From UHGV virus genome UHGV-0061980: a stretch of DNA of 16,785 nt, one strand, 5' to 3'. The position numbers and the translations under genes are program-made. The notes beneath the pieces were generated by a model. The model was not told where the DNA came from and searched no databases. It saw nothing but the letters and a program-made list of their open reading frames with translations. Within the stretch, counting starts at the first letter, position 1. The number at the start of each line of letters is the position of its first letter. Origin of the DNA: a virus. This document shows positions 3,783-16,785 of this stretch, one piece after another.

Positions 3783-4219
3783 GCAGCCCGATCTCCCCAT
3801 CTCGCTTTCCACTCCAGAGCCAGTCTCGCTTCGTCTGACCACTTAACGCCACGCTCTGTACCGAATGCCTGTATAAGCTCTAATAGCTCCGCAAATTCGC
3901 CTACACGCATCCTGCTGGTTGACTGGCCTATTACCACAAAGCCATTCCCGGCAAGGTTAGGAACAACATCCTGCTGCTTTAATGCTGCGGTAAACACACA
4001 CTTCCAGCTTTCTGCATCCAGCCAGCGACCATGCCATTCAACCTGACGAGAGACGTCACCTAAGCAGGCCCATAGCTTCCTGTTTTGGTCTAAGCTGCGG
4101 TTGCGTTCCTGAATGGTTACTACGATTGGTTTGGTTGGGTCTGGAAGGATTTGCTGTACTGCGTGAATAGCGTTTTGCTGATGTGCTGGAGATCGAATTT
4201 CAAAGGTTAGTTTTTTCAT
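3779..4219 (-). CDS. ninB: NinB recombination protein (lambda Orf146 type), 146 aa
   Basis: MKKLTFEIRSPAHQQNAIHAVQQILPDPTKPIVVTIQERNRSLDQNRKLWACLGD... matches lambda NinB from memory. Start taken at MKKL, 6 codons inside the listed ORF. Confidence 0.9.
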   Translation of the reverse strand: MKKLTFEIRSPAHQQNAIHAVQQILPDPTKPIVVTIQERNRSLDQNRKLWACLGDVSRQVEWHGRWLDAESWKCVFTAALKQQDVVPNLAGNGFVVIGQSTSRMRVGEFAELLELIQAFGTERGVKWSDEARLALEWKARWGDRAA

Positions 4220-4232
4220 GACTTCCCTCTCC

Positions 4233-4267
4233 CCCAAATAAAAAGGCCTGCGATTACCTGCAGGCCT
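4233..4267 (-). terminator. Intrinsic terminator between the helicase gene and ninB (tR2-like, expected to be read through under N antitermination)
   Basis: Perfect 8-bp stem AGGCCTGC/GCAGGCCT with an 8-nt loop, followed on the minus-strand transcript by UUUUAUUU. Confidence 0.6.
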
Positions 4268-4292
4268 GTTATTAGCTCAGTGATGTAGATGG

Positions 4293-5669
4293 TCATACGT
4301 CAGCCCCTTGTGCATATCGTCTGCCACGCGCAGCAGGTGCATTTGATGCTGTGCAAATCTGTCTGGCTTCATCCTGGTCACATGCAACAAAGTGTCCGTT
4401 ACAGAACCGCTGGTAAACCGTACCAAGCGAGCCAAAACGGTTTTTCGTCACGATGATTTCAGCAAATGGCGCGGCGCTACTGCTCTCGTCATATACCGCT
4501 TCCCGATAGAGCATGATGATTGAGTCTGCGTCCTGTTCAATGCTTCCTGAATCACGCAAATCTGCGTTTGTCGGGCGTTTGTTTGGTCGCTTCTCAACAT
4601 CGCGCGAAAGTTGACTTAGGGAGATAACAGGCGTTTTCAGGTCTTTCGCCATCGCCTTCAGGCTTCCGGAGATGTGAGCAATTGCGAGGTCGTTGCGGTC
4701 TGCTTTCGGCTTCTCAATCAGGCCAAGATAATCCGCCATGATGAGTGACAGGTTTGGATTTTCCTGTTTGTGCCGTTCTGCGATTGATCGTATTTCTTCG
4801 ACCGATAACCGCGAGGCATCGACTACCCATACATCCAAATCTGCAAGCTGACTCATGCCGTTAGCAACACGTGCCCAGCCTTCGTCATCCATCGCTGCAG
4901 GATTTCGCAGCACACTAACCGACATCCTCCCGGCGTTGGCAATGCTTCGCTCTGCAATCTGCAATGCGCTCATTTCCATTGAGAAAATCAATACTCCGCG
5001 CCGGACGTCAGAACCAGGAATAACACGACTTGCAACGCCTTCGGCAATCTTCAGCGCCAGTTCGGTTTTCCCCATACCAGGACGAGCGGCGATTATCACC
5101 AGGTCTTCCGCGTTCATCCCTCCGGTGATGGCGTCAAGTTCTTCGATTCCGGTCTTCAGGGTATCGGACTCTTCTCCGTTCCTCAGACGCCTGTCAAGCG
5201 TGTCAGTGTAGTCAGTTATGATTTCCCCTAACCGTACAGGTTTAACCTCGTCACGGGGCTTTCTGATGGCTGAAAGACGCTTTACAAGTTCATCCATCGC
5301 CTGACTCGATGCGTCGATGGTTCCGCTCTGAATTGGTTCACGCATTTCATCCATGATTTCCAGCACCAGACGGCGGTGATAGTTATCCGCGACCATTCCG
5401 GCATATCCCTTCAGGTTTGCGGAACTCGGGCAGTTTTTGCTGGTCATCAGGATTGACGTGAAATGCTCCTCTCCGCACGCCTCGGCAACCATCAGCGCGT
5501 CGATTAGGTTTCTGTTTCGCGCCTGCTTGCGGATAACCTCGAAGGCTTTCCGGTAGAGCGGTATTGAAAACGCTTCCGGCTCAAGCGTTGCCAGAACGTC
5601 ACTGGCAATTGGTGTTAATCCACCAATCAGCAGGCCACCGATAACGCTCGCTTCGATATCCTGTTTCAT
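4293..5669 (-). CDS. DnaB-family replicative helicase (P22 gene 12-like, occupying the lambda P position), 458 aa
   Basis: Walker [10 protein letters not shown], a DnaB-like N-terminal domain and a C-terminal RecA-like core ([18 protein letters not shown]). ATGA overlap with the upstream O-like gene. Confidence 0.9.
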
Positions 5670-7578: not shown

Positions 7579-8229
7579 ATGAAAACTCAATTGATGGGAG
7601 AGCGCATTCGCGCTCGGAGAAAAGAACTCAAGATCAGGCAGGCCGCACTTGGAAAGATGGTCGGCGTGTCTAATGTTGCCATATCTCAGTGGGAACGCTC
7701 TGAGACAGAGCCAAATGGAGAGAATCTTCTCGCCCTGGCTAATGCGTTGAAGTGTTCCCCTGACTATCTGATGAAAGGAGAGGAAAGTCTTTCAAACATT
7801 GCCTATCACAGTAGGCATGATCCAAGAGGGTCATACCCTCTGATTAGCTGGGTGAGCGCAGGATGCTGGATGGAAGCTGTAGAACCATATCATAAGCGTG
7901 CAATAGATAACTGGTACGATACAACCGTAGACTGTTCAGAAGATTCGTTTTGGTTGGACGTGAAGGGAGACTCAATGACGGCTCCGGCCGGTCTCAGTAT
8001 CCCTGAAGGAATGATAATACTCGTCGATCCTGAAGTAGAGCCGCGTAACGGGAAACTGGTAGTTGCAAAGCTCGAAGGAGAAAACGAGGCAACTTTCAAG
8101 AAGTTAGTTATTGATGCAGGCAGGAAGTTTCTAAAACCACTTAACCCACAATATCCGATGATCGAGATCAACGGAAACTGCAAAATCATCGGCGTAGTTG
8201 TCGATGCAAAACTAGCAAACCTTCCATAA
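7579..8229 (+). CDS. c2: Prophage repressor, P22 c2-type (LexA-like S24 peptidase C-terminal domain), 216 aa
   Basis: The translation is nearly identical to the P22 C2 repressor as recalled (QLMGERIRARRK.LKIRQAALGKMVGVSNVAISQWERSETEPNGENLLAL...). HTH N-terminal domain; autocleavage elements GDSM and the downstream Lys are present. Confidence 0.95.
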   Translation: MKTQLMGERIRARRKELKIRQAALGKMVGVSNVAISQWERSETEPNGENLLALANALKCSPDYLMKGEESLSNIAYHSRHDPRGSYPLISWVSAGCWMEAVEPYHKRAIDNWYDTTVDCSEDSFWLDVKGDSMTAPAGLSIPEGMIILVDPEVEPRNGKLVVAKLEGENEATFKKLVIDAGRKFLKPLNPQYPMIEINGNCKIIGVVVDAKLANLP

Positions 8230-8855: not shown

Positions 8856-9479
8856 ATGTCATCAATCCGCTTAACTACGAGAATGAAAGAGGAAATCGCT
8901 CGTAACGCTTTAATTAAGTCTGGGGTTTTCACTGAACTTGAAGAAGTAACAAAGTTAAAGAACCAGCTTGCACTTGACGCCAGAGTTATTGCGTTTGGCG
9001 GTAAAAAGAAAACTGAGGAAGTGGATCAGTTATCATCCAAGTTGGTAGCTATAAGTGAAGAACTTGAAAAGATGGGATGTTCATTTTACTCATACGATGT
9101 TAGTTCTACTTCAATTTATCTGACTGTATCTGGCAGAAGGGTTGGATGGCATTCATATGGGAAAGACGGCAACGGCGAAGATATATTGCTCCCTACTCCG
9201 ACCAAAGATAAATGCATGTTTAGCGCAGAACACGAAATAACAAAAAGGTTTGATGAAATCTGCGCATTGCAACAAAAACTTGAAGCCAAGAAAAAGGATA
9301 TCGAATCAAATGTATGGGCTGCTTTGAACTCAGTCACAACAGTTAAGCGACTTATTGAAGTTTGGCCTGAAAGCAAAGAATTGCTACCAAAAGAAGCAGA
9401 TAAAGCAAGTACAGCACTTCCTGCTTTACGGGTAGAAGATTTGAATAAGATGATTGGACTTCCTTCCGAGGCCGCATAG
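8856..9479 (+). CDS. Hypothetical protein, 207 aa, first gene of a low-GC insert after N; function unknown
   Basis: ATG at 8856 preceded by GAGGAA; the start MSSIRLTTRMKEEI lies 20 codons inside the listed ORF, which otherwise overlaps N. About 38% G+C by manual count on the first 120 nt versus about 50% in N. No transmembrane-like hydrophobic stretch; no family recognised. Confidence 0.6.
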   Translation: MSSIRLTTRMKEEIARNALIKSGVFTELEEVTKLKNQLALDARVIAFGGKKKTEEVDQLSSKLVAISEELEKMGCSFYSYDVSSTSIYLTVSGRRVGWHSYGKDGNGEDILLPTPTKDKCMFSAEHEITKRFDEICALQQKLEAKKKDIESNVWAALNSVTTVKRLIEVWPESKELLPKEADKASTALPALRVEDLNKMIGLPSEAA

Positions 9480-9494: not shown

Positions 9495-9613
9495 GGCACT
9501 AACAACAGAATAAACACTGCACTGTGTATTCATTCCAACGAGTGAATACACGGAGCAATGTCGCTCGTAACTAAACAGGAGCCGACTTGTTCTGATTATT
9601 GGAAATCTTCTTT

Positions 9614-9640
9614 GCCCTCCAGTGTGAGGGCGATTTTTTA
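9614..9640 (+). terminator. Second intrinsic terminator, directly upstream of the 122-aa gene's RBS
   Basis: Stem GCCCTC/GAGGGC with a 6-nt loop, followed by GATTTTTTA. Confidence 0.55.
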
Positions 9641-9659
9641 TCTATGAGGATATGAATAG

Positions 9660-10028
9660 ATGTCAAACATCAAAAAATACATCATTGATTACGACTGGAA
9701 AGCATCAATAGAAATTGAAATTGACCATGACGTAATGACAGAGGAAAAACTTCACCAGATTAATAATTTCTGGTCAGACTCTGAATACCGACTCAATAAA
9801 CACGGCTCTGTATTAAATGCTGTATTAATCATGCTGGCGCAACATGCTCTGCTTATAGCAATTTCAAGCGACTTAAATGCATATGGTGTTGTGTGTGAGT
9901 TCGACTGGAATGATGGAAATGGTCAGGAAGGATGGCCTCCAATGGATGGTAGTGAAGGAATAAGAATTACCGATATCGATACATCAGGAATATTTGATTC
10001 AGATGATATGACTATCAAGGCCGCCTGA
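9660..10028 (+). CDS. Hypothetical strongly acidic protein, 122 aa; function unknown
   Basis: Clean ORF with GAGGA upstream. About 22 Asp/Glu versus about 8 Lys/Arg by manual count. Very AT-rich (about 28% G+C in the first 60 nt by manual count). No family recognised. Confidence 0.6.
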   Translation: MSNIKKYIIDYDWKASIEIEIDHDVMTEEKLHQINNFWSDSEYRLNKHGSVLNAVLIMLAQHALLIAISSDLNAYGVVCEFDWNDGNGQEGWPPMDGSEGIRITDIDTSGIFDSDDMTIKAA

Positions 10029-10100
10029 GCGCGGCGTTACCGCATACCAATTACGCTTCACTCGAGGCGTTTTTCGTTATGTATAAATAAGGAGCACACC

Positions 10101-10226
10101 ATGCAATATGCCATTGCAGGGTGGCCTGTTGCTGGCTGCCCTTCCGAATCTTTACTTGAACGAATCACCAGTAAATTACGTGACGGATGGAAAAGAGTTG
10201 AGGTCTTATTATGCGCAATGAAATAG
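10101..10226 (+). CDS. cIII: CIII (lambda-type FtsH inhibitor), short 41-aa variant (below the ORF-track cutoff)
   Basis: MQYAIAGWPVAGCPSESLLERITSKLRDGWKR matches the lambda CIII N-terminus and central helix as recalled; the C-terminus diverges and is shorter. Strong SD AAGGAG upstream. Confidence 0.8.
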   Translation: MQYAIAGWPVAGCPSESLLERITSKLRDGWKRVEVLLCAMK

Positions 10227-10363
10227 CCATTAATCACCAGATGCTTCGTGCTGCACAGAACAAAGCAGTAATAGCCAGATTTATTGGTGATTCAAAAATG
10301 TGGCTTGAAGCAAATAAAGCGATGAAATCAGCTATCAACCTTCCGTGGTATCGCAGGAAATGA
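10211..10363 (+). CDS. kil: Kil-like host cell-division inhibitor, 50 aa
   Basis: Manual translation MRNEIAINHQMLRAAQNKAVIARFIGDSKMWLEANKAMKSAINLPWYRRK. The IA.FIGD.KM core resembles lambda Kil as recalled. Overlaps the cIII 3' end; same position as lambda kil. Confidence 0.5.
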   Translation: MRNEIAINHQMLRAAQNKAVIARFIGDSKMWLEANKAMKSAINLPWYRRK

Positions 10364-10444
10364 GTTTTACAGATAACTGGTCAGACGAAGAATTCATTCG
10401 TCAGATGAACAAAATGCTCAATCAGCACAAAGAACAGGAGAAAG

Positions 10445-10756
10445 ATGATGATTCTGACTCTGAATGATAAGCGTGAAATATCGCAAATAATCGCAAGTTT
10501 TACTGATGAAGATTACGAGCGAATCAACAGTGAAGTTGTTCGCCTCTGCAAACGTTGCGACCCAATAAGCGAAATGCTTCGCTCATATAAACCAGATGAA
10601 CACACTAAGGACGCTATCGACTGGCTGGAAGATGATGATTGTAACTATCAGGAAAAAGCCGCTGAATGGTTCTGGGATGCAATAACCGAAAGAGTTAAGG
10701 CTGAATATGCCTTCGCAATATTCAAACGCAGACACATTTATGGAGAAGCAGCATGA
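10445..10756 (+). CDS. Hypothetical acidic protein, 103 aa, immediately upstream of recT (the positional equivalent of lambda gam)
   Basis: AGGAG SD upstream of ATGATG; ATGA overlap with the recT start. Net acidic. No family recognised. Confidence 0.55.
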   Translation: MMILTLNDKREISQIIASFTDEDYERINSEVVRLCKRCDPISEMLRSYKPDEHTKDAIDWLEDDDCNYQEKAAEWFWDAITERVKAEYAFAIFKRRHIYGEAA

Positions 10757-11664
10757 GCAATATCGTTGAATTCGTTAAACAGCAGGAGCAGTTATTCTGC
10801 GGAGCATTGACTGAACAGACGGTGACATGGGCTAAGGAAAGCCAGTTTGCAATTCAGTATTTCCAGAAAAATGATTACCTGGCTAAAACAGCACTGGCAA
10901 ATCCAACCAGCGCACAGAACGCCATCATCAATGTTGCGGCGATCGGCATCACCTTAAACCCTGCAAGCAAACTGGCTTATCTGGTTCCGCGCGATGGCAT
11001 GGTTTGCCTTGATATCAGCTATATGGGATTGCTCCATATTGCAATGGAGTCTGGTGTTATCTCATGGGGTCAGGCAAAACTTGTTCATGCTAACGATACC
11101 TATGAGTCAAACGGGCTTGATAAAGCACCAACCCATAAATACAACGCCTTCGGTGATCGTGGTGATATCGTTGGCGTTTACTGCACAGTTAAGACGCCAG
11201 CAGGTGATTATCTAACGGAAGAGATGAGTCTGGCTGAAATTGAGGCTGTAAGGAAAACAAGCAAGGCAGCATTCAGCGATAAAGGACCATGGGTAAATCA
11301 CTGGAATGAGATGGCGCGAAAGACGGTCGTAAAGCGTGCAAGCAAGTATTGGCCTAAGGCATCACGTCTTGATAGTGCTATTCACGTACTAAACGAAGAA
11401 GAAGGTGTGTGGACTGAACCAGTTATGCCGCATAAATCAGAGGAAGATATCCGCGAAGATGAACGGAAACGCCAGCAGGAAATAACGGAAAAAGCACAAC
11501 TTCTTTGTGATGAAATGGCTCAGGCTGAAAACATGGATGATTTGAAGAGATATTTTGCAGAAGCATATCGCCTGACATCTGGAATGAAATTGCAGCAGAA
11601 CGTACAAGCCATTTACATAGAATGCAAAGCGAAACTGGAGGTTGCCAGTGAGCAAACTATATGA
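10753..11664 (+). CDS. recT: RecT-family single-strand annealing recombinase, 303 aa
   Basis: The motif GPWVNHWNEMARKTVVKRASKYWP matches the conserved RecT region (Rac RecT GPWVTHWEEMAKKTAIRR...KYLP as recalled). Size and position fit the phage recombination module. Confidence 0.85.
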   Translation: MSNIVEFVKQQEQLFCGALTEQTVTWAKESQFAIQYFQKNDYLAKTALANPTSAQNAIINVAAIGITLNPASKLAYLVPRDGMVCLDISYMGLLHIAMESGVISWGQAKLVHANDTYESNGLDKAPTHKYNAFGDRGDIVGVYCTVKTPAGDYLTEEMSLAEIEAVRKTSKAAFSDKGPWVNHWNEMARKTVVKRASKYWPKASRLDSAIHVLNEEEGVWTEPVMPHKSEEDIREDERKRQQEITEKAQLLCDEMAQAENMDDLKRYFAEAYRLTSGMKLQQNVQAIYIECKAKLEVASEQTI

Positions 11665-12130
11665 AATTGCCAATGAATACGCAAAATTGATGGATTCAGA
11701 TTTAGAACCAGAGATGATTGCTGACACAATAGAAGGCATGGAAGGAGAATTTACCGATAAAATAGAACAACTTCTTTCCGTCATTAAAAATGAATCTGGT
11801 TATGCCGAACGCCTCAAGGAAGAGGCAAAGTCACTGAATGAGCGAGCCGCAGTAATTCAAAATAAGATTGACAGCATCAAATCATATATAGCGTCATCGC
11901 TTGAAATGGTTGGCAAGAAAAATATTCGAGCAGGTATTCACCAGGTAACAATCCGCAAACCGTCAGAAATTGTAGAAATAATCGACTCAAGCGCCCTTCC
12001 TCCTGAATACGTTGAGTTTGAAACGACAATTAAAGCCGACAAACTGGCAATCAAGCACCAACTAAAAGCAGGAATAAATATTCCCGGTGCTCAACTCAAG
12101 GTTGGGAAACCTTCACTTCTTATCAAATAA
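11648..12130 (+). CDS. Gp157-like (Siphovirus Gp157 family) protein, about 160 aa; GTG start
   Basis: GGAGG sits 6 nt upstream of the GTG at 11648; the listed ORF begins at an upstream TTG. Coiled-coil-like sequence of a size and position (directly after recT/erf) typical of this family; assignment from memory only. Confidence 0.45.
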   Translation: MSKLYEIANEYAKLMDSDLEPEMIADTIEGMEGEFTDKIEQLLSVIKNESGYAERLKEEAKSLNERAAVIQNKIDSIKSYIASSLEMVGKKNIRAGIHQVTIRKPSEIVEIIDSSALPPEYVEFETTIKADKLAIKHQLKAGINIPGAQLKVGKPSLLIK

Positions 12131-12141
12131 CGGTATCGCCT

Positions 12142-12456
12142 ATGAAAAAGACTCCATGGGAGAAATGGGAAGTCGATTTCTTGCGCGAAGTATCGGCGAC
12201 AATGCCAGTTGAAGTTATTGCTGAAAAACTGGAAAGGACTGAAAAAGCAGTTATGGCGAAAGCAACAAGGATTGGCGCTGACATTGTTAGCCGACTTCGT
12301 GGAAGACGCTGGACAAGAGCAGAAGTATCACTTTTCGGTAAGTTCTCCGCAGAAGAAATAGCAATTGCAACCTGCCGCTCAATTTATTCAGTAAGGGCTA
12401 TGCGATACAAGCTAAAAAAACTCGATGAAGAAAGAGCAGGCATACGAATAAATTAA
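12142..12456 (+). CDS. Hypothetical DNA-binding protein, 104 aa, with two tandem helix-turn-helix-like repeats
   Basis: Internal repeat W-x3-EV-x2-(L/F)...SA-x-E(I/V)-x-IA...R...(A/S)V-x-A seen twice (residues about 6-45 and 57-95), a pattern typical of Myb/SANT- or GcrA-like HTH modules. Confidence 0.5.
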   Translation: MKKTPWEKWEVDFLREVSATMPVEVIAEKLERTEKAVMAKATRIGADIVSRLRGRRWTRAEVSLFGKFSAEEIAIATCRSIYSVRAMRYKLKKLDEERAGIRIN

Positions 12457-12472
12457 CATGGAATAATTAACA

Positions 12473-12754
12473 ATGAAGCTAAACATCGACCTCGGCAAAT
12501 ACGTTATCACCGGAACCAAACACGATCTGATTCTTAGCGAAAGAGGAATTATCAAAGAAGGCGAGAATGCAGGGAAAGAAACACTAAGTCGTATCGGTTA
12601 TTACAGCAAGTTTGAGCATCTGGTTAAAGAGTTATGCAACCGTGAAATCCTGTTATCTCAGGCGCAGACGCTACAGGATATTCAGCAGCATATCGAGACT
12701 TTAGGTGTGTCACTTAGCATGGCTATTGACCAGTTCGTTGAGAGTAAATCATGA
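12473..12754 (+). CDS. Hypothetical protein, 93 aa
   Basis: Clean ORF on the operon strand; its stop overlaps the next start (ATGA). No family recognised. Confidence 0.5.
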
Positions 12755-12915
12755 GAGGACTTGCATACAATCCCGGCATTCTTCCGGCAGAAATGATTAT
12801 TCGCCAACGCGTAAAGCCAATGCCATCGAGAGAGGAATTACTTAAGCAAAACTCGTTTCCATCAGTGAATCAAAACAAATATCTGAATGCGATGTGGCGG
12901 AGTGGGAAGAAATGA
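12751..12915 (+). CDS. Possible small coupled ORF, 54 aa (below the ORF-track cutoff)
   Basis: ATGA overlap with the upstream stop and with the downstream start ([54 protein letters not shown]). Supported only by this coupling geometry. Confidence 0.3.
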
Positions 12916-13475
12916 AACAAATGTCACTAATTGAGATGGATAGTTTTCTGAAAGGTAAATGCATCCCACGAGATTTAAAGGTTAACGAAACAAACGCTGA
13001 ATATCTGGTGCGTAAATTTGCTGAAGCGGAGGCCAAGATTTCGGCTCTGTCCGAAGACCACCAGAAAGCGATTGAGTCAATTAAGCAGGCTGATGCGGCT
13101 GTTAAGTTGGCACACGAGAAGTTTTCGGCGCTGGCAGCGGAGAATGCCTCAATGAAGCTGTTTATCAGGGGCTGTTGCTACGTGTTTGATGGCCAGCAGG
13201 ATGAAATATCTGATGCGTATATCTGCGCAACAGACGGAGGGATGCCGCAAATTCCAGCCACCGACGCTTTCCTGGCTGAAGTTCGGGCGCAGGGCGTGGA
13301 TGCTGCTATAGAAGCTGCAAAAAATCTGGTGGCCCAAGAATATGAGTATAAGGATTTCAAAGCGGCGCAGAGTGATTGCTGTATGCACCCTGGTTCAGAC
13401 CTGGTAGGGAAGGTTGAAATGACTGAGTGGTTAGTTGACTTTGCTGCCCAGCTTCGCAAAGGAGGCAACCAGTGA
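12912..13475 (+). CDS. Hypothetical protein, about 187 aa, with a coiled-coil N-terminus and a Cys-containing C-terminus
   Basis: ATG at 12912 follows GGAG; an alternative GTG start at 12894 has no SD. Its stop overlaps the GTG start of the Ea22-like gene. Confidence 0.5.
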
Positions 13476-14050
13476 GCGAAATTAATTACCAGGCACTGCG
13501 TGAGGCGGCGGAACGTGCAATTCCAGCAATGGAACGCCTGTTAATGTTGCCAGCTGATGATGATTTGATAAGTGAACAGGAACTTAAAGATTACGGTGTG
13601 GATATTGATGCGCTCAACGCCTTCAAATTTCTGGCCGGACCAGAAACCGTGCTGGCGCTGCTGGATGAACGGGAAAGAAACCAGCAATACATAAAACGCC
13701 GCGATCAGGAGAACGAGGAAATTGCGCTAACGGTAGGGAAGCTGCGTGTTGAGCTGGAAGCCGCAGAGAAGCGCATTGCAGAACTGGAAACACGGGAAAT
13801 AAAACCAGCCAAAGGTGAAGTTCTTGTCGTTGTTTCTGGTTTTACTGGTTGCGGAAAAAGCGCCATTGCCGGGGAAATAGAAATTGCGATGAAGGCTATT
13901 GGTGTACCGGTTCAGAGGACTAATGGCGATGCGGAAAAGCGCATGACAGGAGCTGACTGGCTGACAGCGATTGAGATGTACAAACCAACAGTGCGCATCG
14001 TGGAAGTTAATGTGCCACGCGCCGCTGGCATCAAGGAGGAGTCTGAGTGA
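13472..14050 (+). CDS. Ea22-like (Ead/Ea22 family) protein, 192 aa, with a C-terminal Walker-A-like motif
   Basis: [14 protein letters not shown]... and LALLDERERNQQYIKRRDQENEEIALTVGKLRVELE match lambda Ea22 as recalled. GGAGG SD before the GTG start. The C-terminus contains VLVVVSGFTGCGKS (G-x4-GKS). Confidence 0.7.
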   Translation: MSEINYQALREAAERAIPAMERLLMLPADDDLISEQELKDYGVDIDALNAFKFLAGPETVLALLDERERNQQYIKRRDQENEEIALTVGKLRVELEAAEKRIAELETREIKPAKGEVLVVVSGFTGCGKSAIAGEIEIAMKAIGVPVQRTNGDAEKRMTGADWLTAIEMYKPTVRIVEVNVPRAAGIKEESE

Positions 14051-14541
14051 TGGTCATTTCACCTATAACGCTGAAAGCGGCGCAGGAATTTATCGCACAG
14101 CACCACCGACACAATAAACCACCAGTGGGGCATAAATTCAGCATTGGTCTGAGAAATAATGCCGGAGAATTGATAGGTGTGGCGACAGCTGGTCGACCTG
14201 TTGCACGACATTTCGACGATGGATTAACGCTTGAAGTAAATCGCACATGTACCACAGGAGAACGCAACGCTAACAGCGCGCTTTATGGTGCTATCTGGCG
14301 GGCAGCAAAAGCTATGGGTTATCAACGTTGTATTACGTACACCCAGGCAGATGAATCAGGAGCATCTCTTCGCGCAGTTGGTTTTGTTCGTGTGAAAGAG
14401 CTTCCTCCAAGAAAAAGCTGGGCGGAATCAAGCGTCGCCCTGCGGAGTAAACGCGATCCGGTCGGAAACGGTGGTATTCCTCGTGTGCTCTGGGAAATCA
14501 GGAGAATGAGTACCACTGGCATTGGCATCAAAGGAGGGTGA
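14050..14541 (+). CDS. Conserved-looking hypothetical protein, about 163 aa (HHRH motif; possibly an acetyltransferase-like fold, unverified)
   Basis: ATG at 14050 overlaps the Ea22-like stop (TGATG); AGGAGG upstream. Fold assignment is a guess from motif spacing only. Confidence 0.5.
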   Translation: MVISPITLKAAQEFIAQHHRHNKPPVGHKFSIGLRNNAGELIGVATAGRPVARHFDDGLTLEVNRTCTTGERNANSALYGAIWRAAKAMGYQRCITYTQADESGASLRAVGFVRVKELPPRKSWAESSVALRSKRDPVGNGGIPRVLWEIRRMSTTGIGIKGG

Positions 14542-15640: not shown

Positions 15641-15850
15641 ATGGCTATTGCCGCAAGTTACACCATGCATCTCTATTGTGATTGTCGCCAGTGTACGGAA
15701 GGTGTATATCCAGTGCCAGACTTCGGTGAGTATATCGGTACGTCATGGTCTGGTTGTGCAAAAGAGGCCCGTAAAGACGGGTGGCGAATAAGCAAAGACA
15801 AAACACGTACTTTTGCGCCCGGGCATAAAGTTTTGAGGATTAACACATGA
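15641..15850 (+). CDS. Small Cys-rich hypothetical protein, 69 aa
   Basis: The ATG at 15641 lies 1 nt after the upstream stop; its stop overlaps the next start (ATGA). Cys pattern C-x-C-x2-C...C suggests possible metal binding. Confidence 0.4.
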   Translation: MAIAASYTMHLYCDCRQCTEGVYPVPDFGEYIGTSWSGCAKEARKDGWRISKDKTRTFAPGHKVLRINT

Positions 15851-16579
15851 CCACTATTACCAAAGAACGTATTGAATTGTTCATTAAAAATCCGCTTGAA
15901 AACGGGCTTACTCGTGGCGAACAAATGGAACTAGCACGAATTGCACTGGCATCACTGGAACGCGAACAGATTCGCCACGAGCATGCCAAATGGTCTGACT
16001 CCACATTTGGCTGCGTTGGCCCCATTGGTCCACTGAAACACCTCTCAAAAGAGGCACTGGAAGCCGCAGCCGAACCAGACGATCTTAGCGAGTGGGCTGA
16101 TATGCAGTTTCTGTTGTGGGATGCACAGCGCCGTGCTGGCATCAGCGATGCTGAAATTACCGTTGCTATGGAAGATAAATTGAAGATCAACATGGAGCGC
16201 CAGTGGCCTGAGCCAAAAGATGGTGAGCCTCGCTTGCACATTAAAGAACCCGGCAACTCTCCGGTAATTCCGGATGGTTTATCCACGGTATGCGCTGAGG
16301 CTTATCAGGTTGTAGGAGTTATGGCAGATGCGCTTGGTGTATTCGGTGATGCAGCAGTACAGAAAGTTCTGGATAACCTGTCACAGCAAAAACTTGTTCA
16401 CAGAGATGTGCTGCCGTTCTCGCTTCCGGTAACTCCGGATGGTTGGGTTATGGTTCCTAAACAGGTAACGCCGGAAATCAGCAACGCGATAAACGTTGTG
16501 GGTCAACGCTGTACATGCGGAAATTGCTCTCAGCGGTTGTGGGATTTATTACTCGACGCCACACAGCAAGGAGTTAACC

Positions 16580-16587
<8 letters not shown>
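15847..16587 (+). CDS. MazG-like nucleotide pyrophosphohydrolase-domain protein (DUF550-like dATP/dGTP diphosphohydrolase type), 246 aa
   Basis: The central region HLSKEALEAAAEPDDLSEWADMQFLLWDAQRRAGISDAEITVAMEDKLKINMER fits the MazG-type E-x2-E ... E-x2-D signature. GAGGA SD upstream. Confidence 0.55.

Positions 16588-16785
<198 letters not shown>

Follow-up and report, generated by a model that had tools for sequence, protein, structure and literature searches.

The 16,785-nucleotide stretch of the viral genome UHGV-0061980 analysed here (the window) carries, at positions 10445-12130 of its plus strand, a recT gene flanked by the gene of a 103-amino acid protein (p103) and by a gene of the Gp157 family (gp157), and without an exonuclease gene beside it. 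We consider it likely that this region is the recombination (Rec) module of an N-antiterminated early-left operon, of the HK140/Gally sequence type, made up of p103, RecT, Gp157 (known as 'MuGam') and an Abc1-like protein, and working by the mechanism proposed below. A RecT without a cognate exonuclease beside Gp157 is an established module type and nothing is new in the arrangement itself: the finding mostly confirms published work, nuclease-free Rec modules being common in lambdoid phages and the HK140 type being already catalogued. The remaining points of interest are the p103 family and a correlation between the C-terminal tail of RecT and the gene that follows it.

The open reading frames (ORFs) of the module are real genes and not chance ORFs. 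recT (10753..11664, plus strand) encodes 303 amino acids that match PF03837 (2.9e-32; 112.3 bits for a cut-off of 24, residues 31-217) and phrog_148 (3e-92) and that are 59% identical to phi80 RecT over residues 4-219; no solved structure was found for it by phmmer at E<=1e-3. Judged from these matches, the protein is a RecT-family single-strand annealing protein (SAP), of the 'SAP-4' type of Zheng et al. The gene downstream, gp157 (11648..12130, plus strand), encodes 160 amino acids, and the initial annotation, which had called this protein Gp157-like, was right: the Sipho_Gp157 match is full length (PF05565, 2.4e-37; 128.9 bits for a cut-off of 28.6, residues 5-162 on profile positions 1-162 of 162), phrog_253 is matched at 5e-54, and gp157 of phage Sfi21 itself is reached by tblastn at 1e-9. 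The longest gp157 ORF (11642-12130) would give 162 amino acids from a TTG, but the GTG at 11648 is the likelier start because the homologues have 160 amino acids. The first gene of the module encodes p103 (10445..10756, plus strand; phrog_3486, 1.8e-58); its homologues start at the second ATG, 10448, so that 102 amino acids is its probable length. The p103 gene and recT overlap by the ATGA at 10753-10756, and recT and gp157 by 17 nucleotides at 11648-11664.

The exonuclease that usually accompanies RecT could not be found, as the initial annotation had suspected. Pfam scans of 30 selected ORFs from both strands of the window revealed no YqaJ, RecE/DUF3799, lambda Exo or single-stranded DNA-binding protein (SSB) domain, and the sole nuclease-type matches in the window were RusA and YbcO, in the nin region. 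There is no adjacent gene of the YqaJ, lambda Exo or RecE type, as a two-component RecET or lambda Red system would have; RecT and Gp157, downstream of N and kil, instead make up a nuclease-free Rec module of the P22 functional type and HK140 sequence type. Positions 9500-13000 align with the complete phages HK140, mEpX1, Kapi1, Gally and Louie at 97-98% DNA identity (two or three aligned pieces, 72-83% covered), and in phages of the HK140/mEpX1/Gally type p103 and Gp157 show 98-99% protein identity. No Exo, RecE or YqaJ gene occurs anywhere in the complete annotated genome of HK140, and no exonuclease is found among the annotated genes of Gally and Louie from the repressor gene to int, or in an E. 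coli prophage over the stretch that runs from its repressor gene past int to the flanking icd. The absence of an exonuclease from these regions, and from the whole genome of HK140, means that the enzyme is absent and not merely outside the window. The order 35-residue ORF-p103-RecT-Gp157-p104 (p104 being the Abc1-like protein) is found in most of 80 IMG/VR loci, and in none of the 80 does a homologue of six probe exonucleases or of an HNH protein lie within 3.5 kb; these loci were chosen through Gp157 and, being nearly identical to the window (all 96-99%), they show prevalence and not independent conservation.

It might be supposed that a cognate exonuclease lies beyond the window, or that the module is the decaying remnant of one that lost it: the window stops at 16785, before int, RecT is usually paired with an exonuclease, and sister modules of the p103-RecT-YqaJ type exist. 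We regard this as extremely improbable here, and for the module type it is refuted. Besides the genomes above, HK140 being a plaque-forming phage with the same module, the gene order is kept in relatives that are 40-50% identical in p103 (L013 and L191 in our numbering of loci), and the RecT tail is a distinct, conserved type and not a degraded Exo-type tail. The initial annotation had left open whether the exonuclease is dispensable or outside the window; the first of these stands, the second does not. In Louie (L002, 6699-7166), an HNH endonuclease gene, probably a mobile one of the homing type, is inserted between recT and gp157, the rest of the module being near-identical.

The nuclease-free state is well documented, a point that the initial annotation had missed. 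Zheng, Casjens, Davidson, Amundsen and Smith (Genome Res 2025, PMC12315714) surveyed the Rec modules of 325 lambdoid phages: a nuclease gene is wanting in 84 of 246 Enterobacteriales modules, 46 phages form the 'P22' functional class (anti-RecBCD protein and SAP only), and HK140 is the example of SAP type 4, lacking both a phage nuclease and an SSB and carrying a 'MuGam' anti-RecBCD protein. Misson et al. (PLoS Pathog 2023, PMC9928086) call recT-gam-abc1 of Gally 'the recombination module'. A search of the main texts of both papers found no mention of the p103 gene. Compared with these HK140/mEpX1/Gally-type modules, the window has the same genes in the same order at the same early-left position, equally free of an exonuclease, and there is essentially no difference apart from the mosaic of the flanking ea-region and a DUF5405 gene that is present in some copies only. 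The arf-erf-abc1-abc2 module of P22 is also alike, since it is nuclease-free, combines an annealing protein, an anti-RecBCD protein and a helix-turn-helix (HTH) protein of phrog_323, and has a small acidic ORF ahead of it, after cIII and kil; its functional type is the combination found in HK140 as Zheng et al. describe that phage. P22 differs in having Erf instead of RecT and in having Abc2, which binds RecC and redirects RecBCD: no window ORF scanned matched Abc2 (PF11043) in Pfam, and neither p103 nor the DUF5405 protein showed similarity to it by BLASTP or hhalign. RecBCD is probably handled differently than in P22, because the slot holds a putative end binder resembling Mu Gam and not Abc2.

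The initial annotation had also linked the Gp157 family to phage resistance, a phenotype reportedly obtained with cloned DNA from the origin region of Sfi21. This link is not what matters here, as both annotation and Zheng et al. (2025) treat Gp157 as an end-protection or anti-RecBCD protein of the MuGam type: the label is 'Mu Gam-like end protection' in PHROGs, 'MuGam' in Zheng et al. and 'gam' in the Gally paper. The likelier anti-RecBCD gene is therefore the downstream gp157 and not the upstream p103 gene. Mu Gam itself, a Ku-like end-binding inhibitor of host nucleases, is similar in size to Gp157 and gives a weak co-linear match to its C-terminal profile, but it belongs to separate Pfam and PHROG families (PF07352 and phrog_491 for Mu Gam, PF05565 and phrog_253 for Gp157), with no direct hidden Markov model link between them, and end binding by Gp157 is a prediction. 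With shallow alignments, hhalign compared the two at E 0.046-0.07; this improved to 6e-4 (P 6e-4) with diverse ones, to which Gp157 proteins from Bacillus, Vibrio, Klebsiella, Listeria, Streptococcus and Staphylococcus phages and Gam proteins from Rhodobacter, Rhizobium, Haemophilus and Pseudomonas phages had been added. The match is strongest over the C-terminal 60 residues (score 29.6, HHsuite probability 28%), and its score was reached by 0 of 400 shuffled controls (200 column-shuffled, maximum 19.1; 200 block-shuffled, maximum 22.4). The similarity is weak but real, and it speaks for a remote homology of Gp157 with Mu Gam, short of a firm assignment. A tblastn search detected true Mu Gam in Mu-like transposable phages only. 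An AlphaFold2 (AF2) model of Gp157 consists of one very long helix and a small, beta-rich C-terminal domain (pLDDT, the model's confidence score, 78); fold searches with this model were uninformative, and a sequence search of the PDB with the Gp157 and p103 profiles returned chance-level matches only.

A different proposal would be that Gp157 is a cryptic nuclease that replaces Exo. Foldseek lists a few PD-(D/E)XK/RecB-like phage proteins among its weak matches to Gp157 (ranks 14, 42 and 48; E 0.02-2.6), and the Gp157 protein of Vibrio phage D53 (L180, 2860-3363) weakly matches the C-terminal part of phrog_434, 'RecE-like exonuclease' (E 0.006). That match is confined to positions 244-336 of 372, which we presume to lie outside the nuclease core of the RecE/YqaJ type, and the D53 gene stands just downstream of a separate exonuclease gene, so that it is no general replacement for one. 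Across 17 diverse Gp157 proteins, the conserved positions are L4, Y5, D26, T27, K38, E59, D113, P118, D131, G142 and G147, and they include no catalytic motif, be it D...(D/E)xK, HNH or another, which speaks against a nuclease in disguise; we find the proposal very hard to credit. The Foldseek and D53 matches may indicate that some nucleases carry a Gp157-like domain.

Gp157 also stands beside annealing genes in other phages. In Firmicutes phages, Gp157, Mu Gam homologues, DUF1351 and DUF2483 share one slot beside erf or sak4 (PMC8093625). In the Gp157-Sak4/Erf-SSB modules of Sfi21, A25, LP-101, phiNM2 and VLCpiS13b, gp157 adjoins the annealing gene and there is no cognate exonuclease, as in the window; these modules differ in that the annealing protein is Sak4 or Erf and that an SSB is usual. 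The Firmicutes examples have gp157 upstream of the annealing gene, whereas it lies downstream in the window and in Klebsiella phage VLCpiS13b.

A new detail concerns the C-terminal domain of RecT (approximately residues 220-303, 11410..11661, plus strand), which is of a type, here called the G type, seen only in Gp157-partnered RecTs. The window and phi80 RecTs are 59-60% identical over their first 220 residues or so, and their last 80 or so cannot be aligned. The comparison covered twelve RecTs whose genes come after that of a p103 homologue or of GamL. Those partnered with Gp157, three in number (window, L013 and L191), all have one tail type, with 39-76% identity; six that are partnered with YqaJ/Exo have a second type, with 45-95% identity, and include L194, whose annealing domain is that of another RecT subfamily; and L196 and L009, which are exonuclease-partnered as well, represent a further RecT subfamily with a third tail type. 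BLASTP at 1e-3 found no match between tails of different types, and in a multiple alignment the window tail is 8-16% identical to exonuclease-partnered tails, whereas identity between the annealing domains of these proteins is 45-64%. The window RecT does not, then, carry a tail of the exonuclease-partner type, and the comparison supports the view that the last 80 residues of RecT co-vary with the downstream partner, independently of the annealing domain. A metagenomic RecT (L010, 387-1265) has an annealing domain 71-75% identical to those of the Gp157-partnered group and an Exo-type tail, which gives it the look of a natural chimera; its contig stops before the partner gene.

In lambda, Beta binds Exo through its C-terminal domain, and the pairing of RecE with RecT is partner-specific. 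The sequence comparison is most simply read to mean that the RecT tail is a partner-docking domain; what it docks in HK140-type modules would be Gp157, with the Abc1-like protein and a host factor as further possibilities. Domain shuffling of annealing proteins has been mentioned as likely, without analysis (PMC12315714). The tracking of the partner by the tail provides a testable handle on how an annealing protein is coupled to an exonuclease or to an end-protection protein, and it bears on the poor portability of RecT between hosts.

We propose that RecT would anneal complementary single strands supplied not by a cognate 5'-3' exonuclease but by host nucleases and helicases, or present as single-stranded DNA at replication forks and rolling-circle tails. 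Gp157, like Mu Gam, would bind double-stranded ends and so shield concatemeric or linear phage DNA from RecBCD; it would probably also be the physical partner of RecT on its partner-specific tail, in the slot that Exo or YqaJ fills in sister modules. The Abc1-like HTH protein would be an accessory factor, as in P22.

Several points weigh against this proposal. Gally deleted for recT-gam-abc1 still gave transducing particles, able to lysogenise (PMC9928086), so that a rec+ host can do without the module. An end binder that blocks RecBCD should also hinder resection, which leaves the supply of single strands to RecT unexplained. The HK140 genome (L178) has four top-strand Chi sites (2143, 13519, 15106 and 16201) and none on the bottom strand, for about 0.6 expected per strand, which is odd for an anti-RecBCD phage and hints that RecBCD is not fully blocked. 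The correlation of tail and partner comes from a small sample of few independent lineages, and docking on the Abc1-like protein or on a host factor could explain it instead. Finally, the literature searched contained no biochemical tests of the module proteins and no experiments on any Gp157 protein, be it on the binding of double-stranded DNA ends or on RecBCD blocking.

The p103 gene is the other point of interest. The initial annotation had described its product as an acidic protein in the gam position, and both terms are apt: p103 has 23 aspartate and glutamate for 15 lysine and arginine residues (net charge -8, isoelectric point 4.7), and its gene is the immediate upstream neighbour of the annealing-protein gene within the early-left operon, in the order cIII-kil-35-residue ORF-p103-recT, to be compared with cIII-kil-gam-bet-exo. 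The family comprises 27 clusters at 90% identity, or 54 representatives at 50%, is confined to phages of the Enterobacterales type, and its members listed are mostly about 100 amino acids long. No Pfam family matched p103, and none recurred among 36 members at E<=10. Its AF2 model is all-helical, with five helices (pLDDT 75, falling to 58-68 for residues 31-70), and with this moderately confident model neither sequence nor fold (Foldseek, E<=10) found a match in the PDB, including Gam (2UUZ, 5MBV) and Abc2 (8B1T).

We examined 15 contexts that differ in p103 sequence. In all of them the p103 gene immediately precedes the next gene, with an overlap or a gap of no more than a few bases, and in the 14 that are readable this next gene encodes RecT or a RecE-like protein. 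The arrangement p103-RecT-YqaJ/Exo accounts for seven contexts (ENT47670, Midgardsormr38, L009 and L193-L196), p103-RecT-Gp157 for three (the window type, L013 and L191) and p103-DUF3799, a RecE-like protein, for two (SEN22 and L014). In L011, a 281-amino acid protein of an 'exonuclease' PHROG stands between p103 and Gp157; in L010, p103 is followed by RecT and the contig stops before the third gene; and in L192 the contig stops 44 codons into the next gene. The L011 protein (3818-4663) has no Pfam match, its match to phrog_2489 ('exonuclease', 8e-92) involves the C-terminal part only, and it may be one of the nuclease-less 'RecE-2' proteins of Zheng et al. As p103-RecT-YqaJ/Exo is the commonest arrangement, the usual setting of p103 is a trio of the lambda Red kind in which p103 takes the gam slot, and the HK140 type resembles this trio after an exchange of the RecT tail and the exonuclease for another tail, Gp157 and the Abc1-like protein. 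The modules of lambda (gam-bet-exo), phi80 (gamL-recT-exo) and Rac (racC-recE-recT) occupy the same operon position, with a gene for about 90-105 amino acids directly upstream of the recombinase gene; they differ in encoding a 5'-3' exonuclease and a RecT/Beta C-terminus of the exonuclease type, where the window has Gp157 and the other tail. p103 is not detectably related to Gam of lambda, GamL of phi80 or RacC of Rac; like these three, Abc2 was tried as its counterpart and set aside for lack of significant similarity by BLASTP or hhalign.

What p103 does can be argued in two directions, and an anti-RecBCD or DNA-mimic role, as the initial annotation had suggested, would follow from its position only. 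Our best guess is that this conserved first gene of RecT/RecE modules encodes either an inhibitor of host nucleases, in the gam slot, or a recombinase cofactor. As an analogue of Gam, which we put forward tentatively, p103 would act on RecBCD, and perhaps on SbcCD, as a small acidic inhibitor or as a DNA mimic, and would represent a new sequence family, Gp157 adding a second, end-binding layer. Besides its acidity and the parallel with lambda cIII-kil-gam-bet, this would fit the place of phi80 gamL, directly upstream of a RecT 59% identical to that of the window, and the fact that 7 of the 13 contexts with a readable partner are p103-RecT-YqaJ/Exo, without any other annotated anti-RecBCD gene; HK639, which has GamL plus MuGam (PMC12315714), is a precedent for two such functions in one module. 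The profile comparisons were not significant: the E-value of hhalign between p103 and GamL went from 0.013 with a single sequence to 0.13 with an alignment of 53 sequences, that with Gam and GamL together was 0.15, and p103 belongs to PHROG 3486, to be set against 1050 for the Gam/GamL comparison. A short local match aligns DDDCNYQEKAAE of p103 with DDDVEFQERMAE of lambda GamS in an acidic motif of 19 columns (P 0.008; 0 of 150 residue shuffles reach its score); it is one among several comparisons and, as such, a lead and not evidence. The Foldseek search just described, which matched neither Gam nor Abc2, likewise counts against a Gam analogue, within the moderate confidence of the model.

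Chi sites have a bearing on the same question. According to the rule of Zheng et al. (PMC12315714), Chi is missing in phages with an anti-RecBCD function, and the SEN22 class, with 0/0 sites in their Table 1, and ENT47670 and Midgardsormr38, with 0/0 as well, would fit this rule if p103 were inhibitory; P22 and the window also lack Chi sites. However, zero is near the random expectation (about 0.8 per strand in a genome of 40-50 kb), so that Chi counts have little power on the role of p103.

The p103 family is also found ahead of RecE-like genes, which would suit a recombinase cofactor just as well. p103 might be an accessory or regulatory subunit with a role like that of Arf, binding RecT or the RecE-like protein or setting their stoichiometry by translational coupling, and would then not act on host nucleases. 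It is directly upstream of a gene for RecT or a RecE-like/DUF3799 protein in 14 of 14 readable contexts, whatever the third gene, and its partner is sometimes RecE-like without any RecT (SEN22, L014). A single interface is not obvious, however, as the partner RecT families vary (L194, L196, L009) and the RecE-like proteins are unrelated to RecT, and p103 has no similarity to Arf or to a known mediator, the Foldseek matches to T4 UvsY having E>3. We hold this role to be conceivable but doubtful, to the same degree as that of a Gam analogue.

A broader proposition joins the p103 and RecT-tail arguments: phrog_3486 would be an unrecognised family of host-nuclease inhibitors in the gam slot of many RecT/RecE modules, and a Ku/Mu-Gam-like end binder would have taken over the role of the exonuclease as docking partner of RecT through the swapped tail. 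We think it rather unlikely that both parts hold. If they did, the ENT47670, Midgardsormr38 and SEN22 types, now scored as having no anti-RecBCD function, would have one, and the HK140 type would represent recombination by an end binder plus an annealing protein without dedicated resection. Inhibition of host nucleases by p103 would change the classification of phages as RecBCD-evading or RecBCD-dependent and could provide a helper for recombineering.

The genes on either side of p103-recT-gp157 recall P22. A very acidic ORF of 35 amino acids (10360..10467, plus strand; phrog_17766 7.6e-16, phrog_2123 5.3e-10) overlaps the start of the p103 gene; it is annotated in Louie, and most of the 80 IMG/VR loci have it. 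Its N-terminus has an SDEEFI motif in common with P22 Arf (BLASTP E 0.007 in a single comparison), which is in another PHROG (phrog_2445), and on this weak evidence it may be an Arf-like peptide. A near-identical ORF is present without annotation in SEN22, and ENT47670 has a shorter related one.

Downstream of gp157, p104 (12142..12456, plus strand) is a basic, tandem-HTH protein of 104 amino acids, which follows Gp157 in most of the 80 IMG/VR loci and is named 'abc1' in Gally. Its family, phrog_323 (2.6e-19), is also that of P22 Abc1 (1.3e-23) and of Mu gp9 (5.2e-29), and BLASTP matches it to Mu gp9 at 8e-5. BLASTP against P22 Abc1 was empty, so we do not retain p104 as a close homologue of Abc1 as annotated in Gally: phrog_323 and the match to Mu gp9 support remote kinship only. 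The place of Mu gp9 beside Mu Gam parallels that of this HTH gene of the Abc1/gp9 family beside gp157. HTH genes of the Abc1/Mu-gp9 type adjoin an end-protection or anti-RecBCD gene in four unrelated settings, namely the window, P22 (abc1-abc2; L004, 26970-27254), Mu (gp9-gam; L005, 1483-1782) and Rhodobacter phage RcWaterboi (L181, 1134-1499), phrog_323 having been tested in the first three and the last being assigned by annotation only; this recurrence suggests a functional pair.

The source of the window is a prophage of the P22/lambda-like type, and the window covers its immunity and early regions. The minus strand carries, read from about 7500 towards 140, cro, the replication gene O, a DnaB-type helicase gene, the genes of NinB, Dam, NinX, YbcO and RusA, antiterminator Q and a holin gene. 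The cI/C2-type repressor gene (7579-8229, plus strand) is followed by the rightward early-left genes in the order N-like gene, Nmad5-domain protein, DUF2528, cIII, kil, recT region and ea-type genes. The Nmad5 protein (8856-9479, plus strand), directly after the N-like gene, has 207 amino acids and is wholly one domain, 'nucleotide modification associated domain 5' (PF18757, 1.2e-71; phrog_1965). The ORF at 10101-10226 (plus strand) begins MQYAIAGWPVAGCPSESLLERI and is presumably a lambda CIII-like gene; Louie's counterpart has the annotation CIII, and that of L191 carries Lambda_CIII. kil (10211..10363, plus strand; 50 amino acids, Lambda_Kil PF06301, 1.7e-20) marks the start of the lambda-like order cIII-kil-gam slot-annealing protein gene. 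Terminator-like hairpins on the plus strand, at 9468, 9612 and 10053, are all upstream of cIII, and since no such plus-strand site occurs within 10100-12900, the genes from cIII through the DUF2737 gene would form one transcription unit.

Two ea-region genes further downstream are possible nucleotide-metabolism or modification genes: that of a 164-amino acid protein (14047-14541, plus strand) with a sub-threshold match to the Mom family (PF25680, 6e-5), called 'XF1762 family' in RefSeq relatives, and that of a 246-amino acid protein (15847-16587, plus strand) with a dATP/dGTP pyrophosphohydrolase domain (PF04447, 8e-42).

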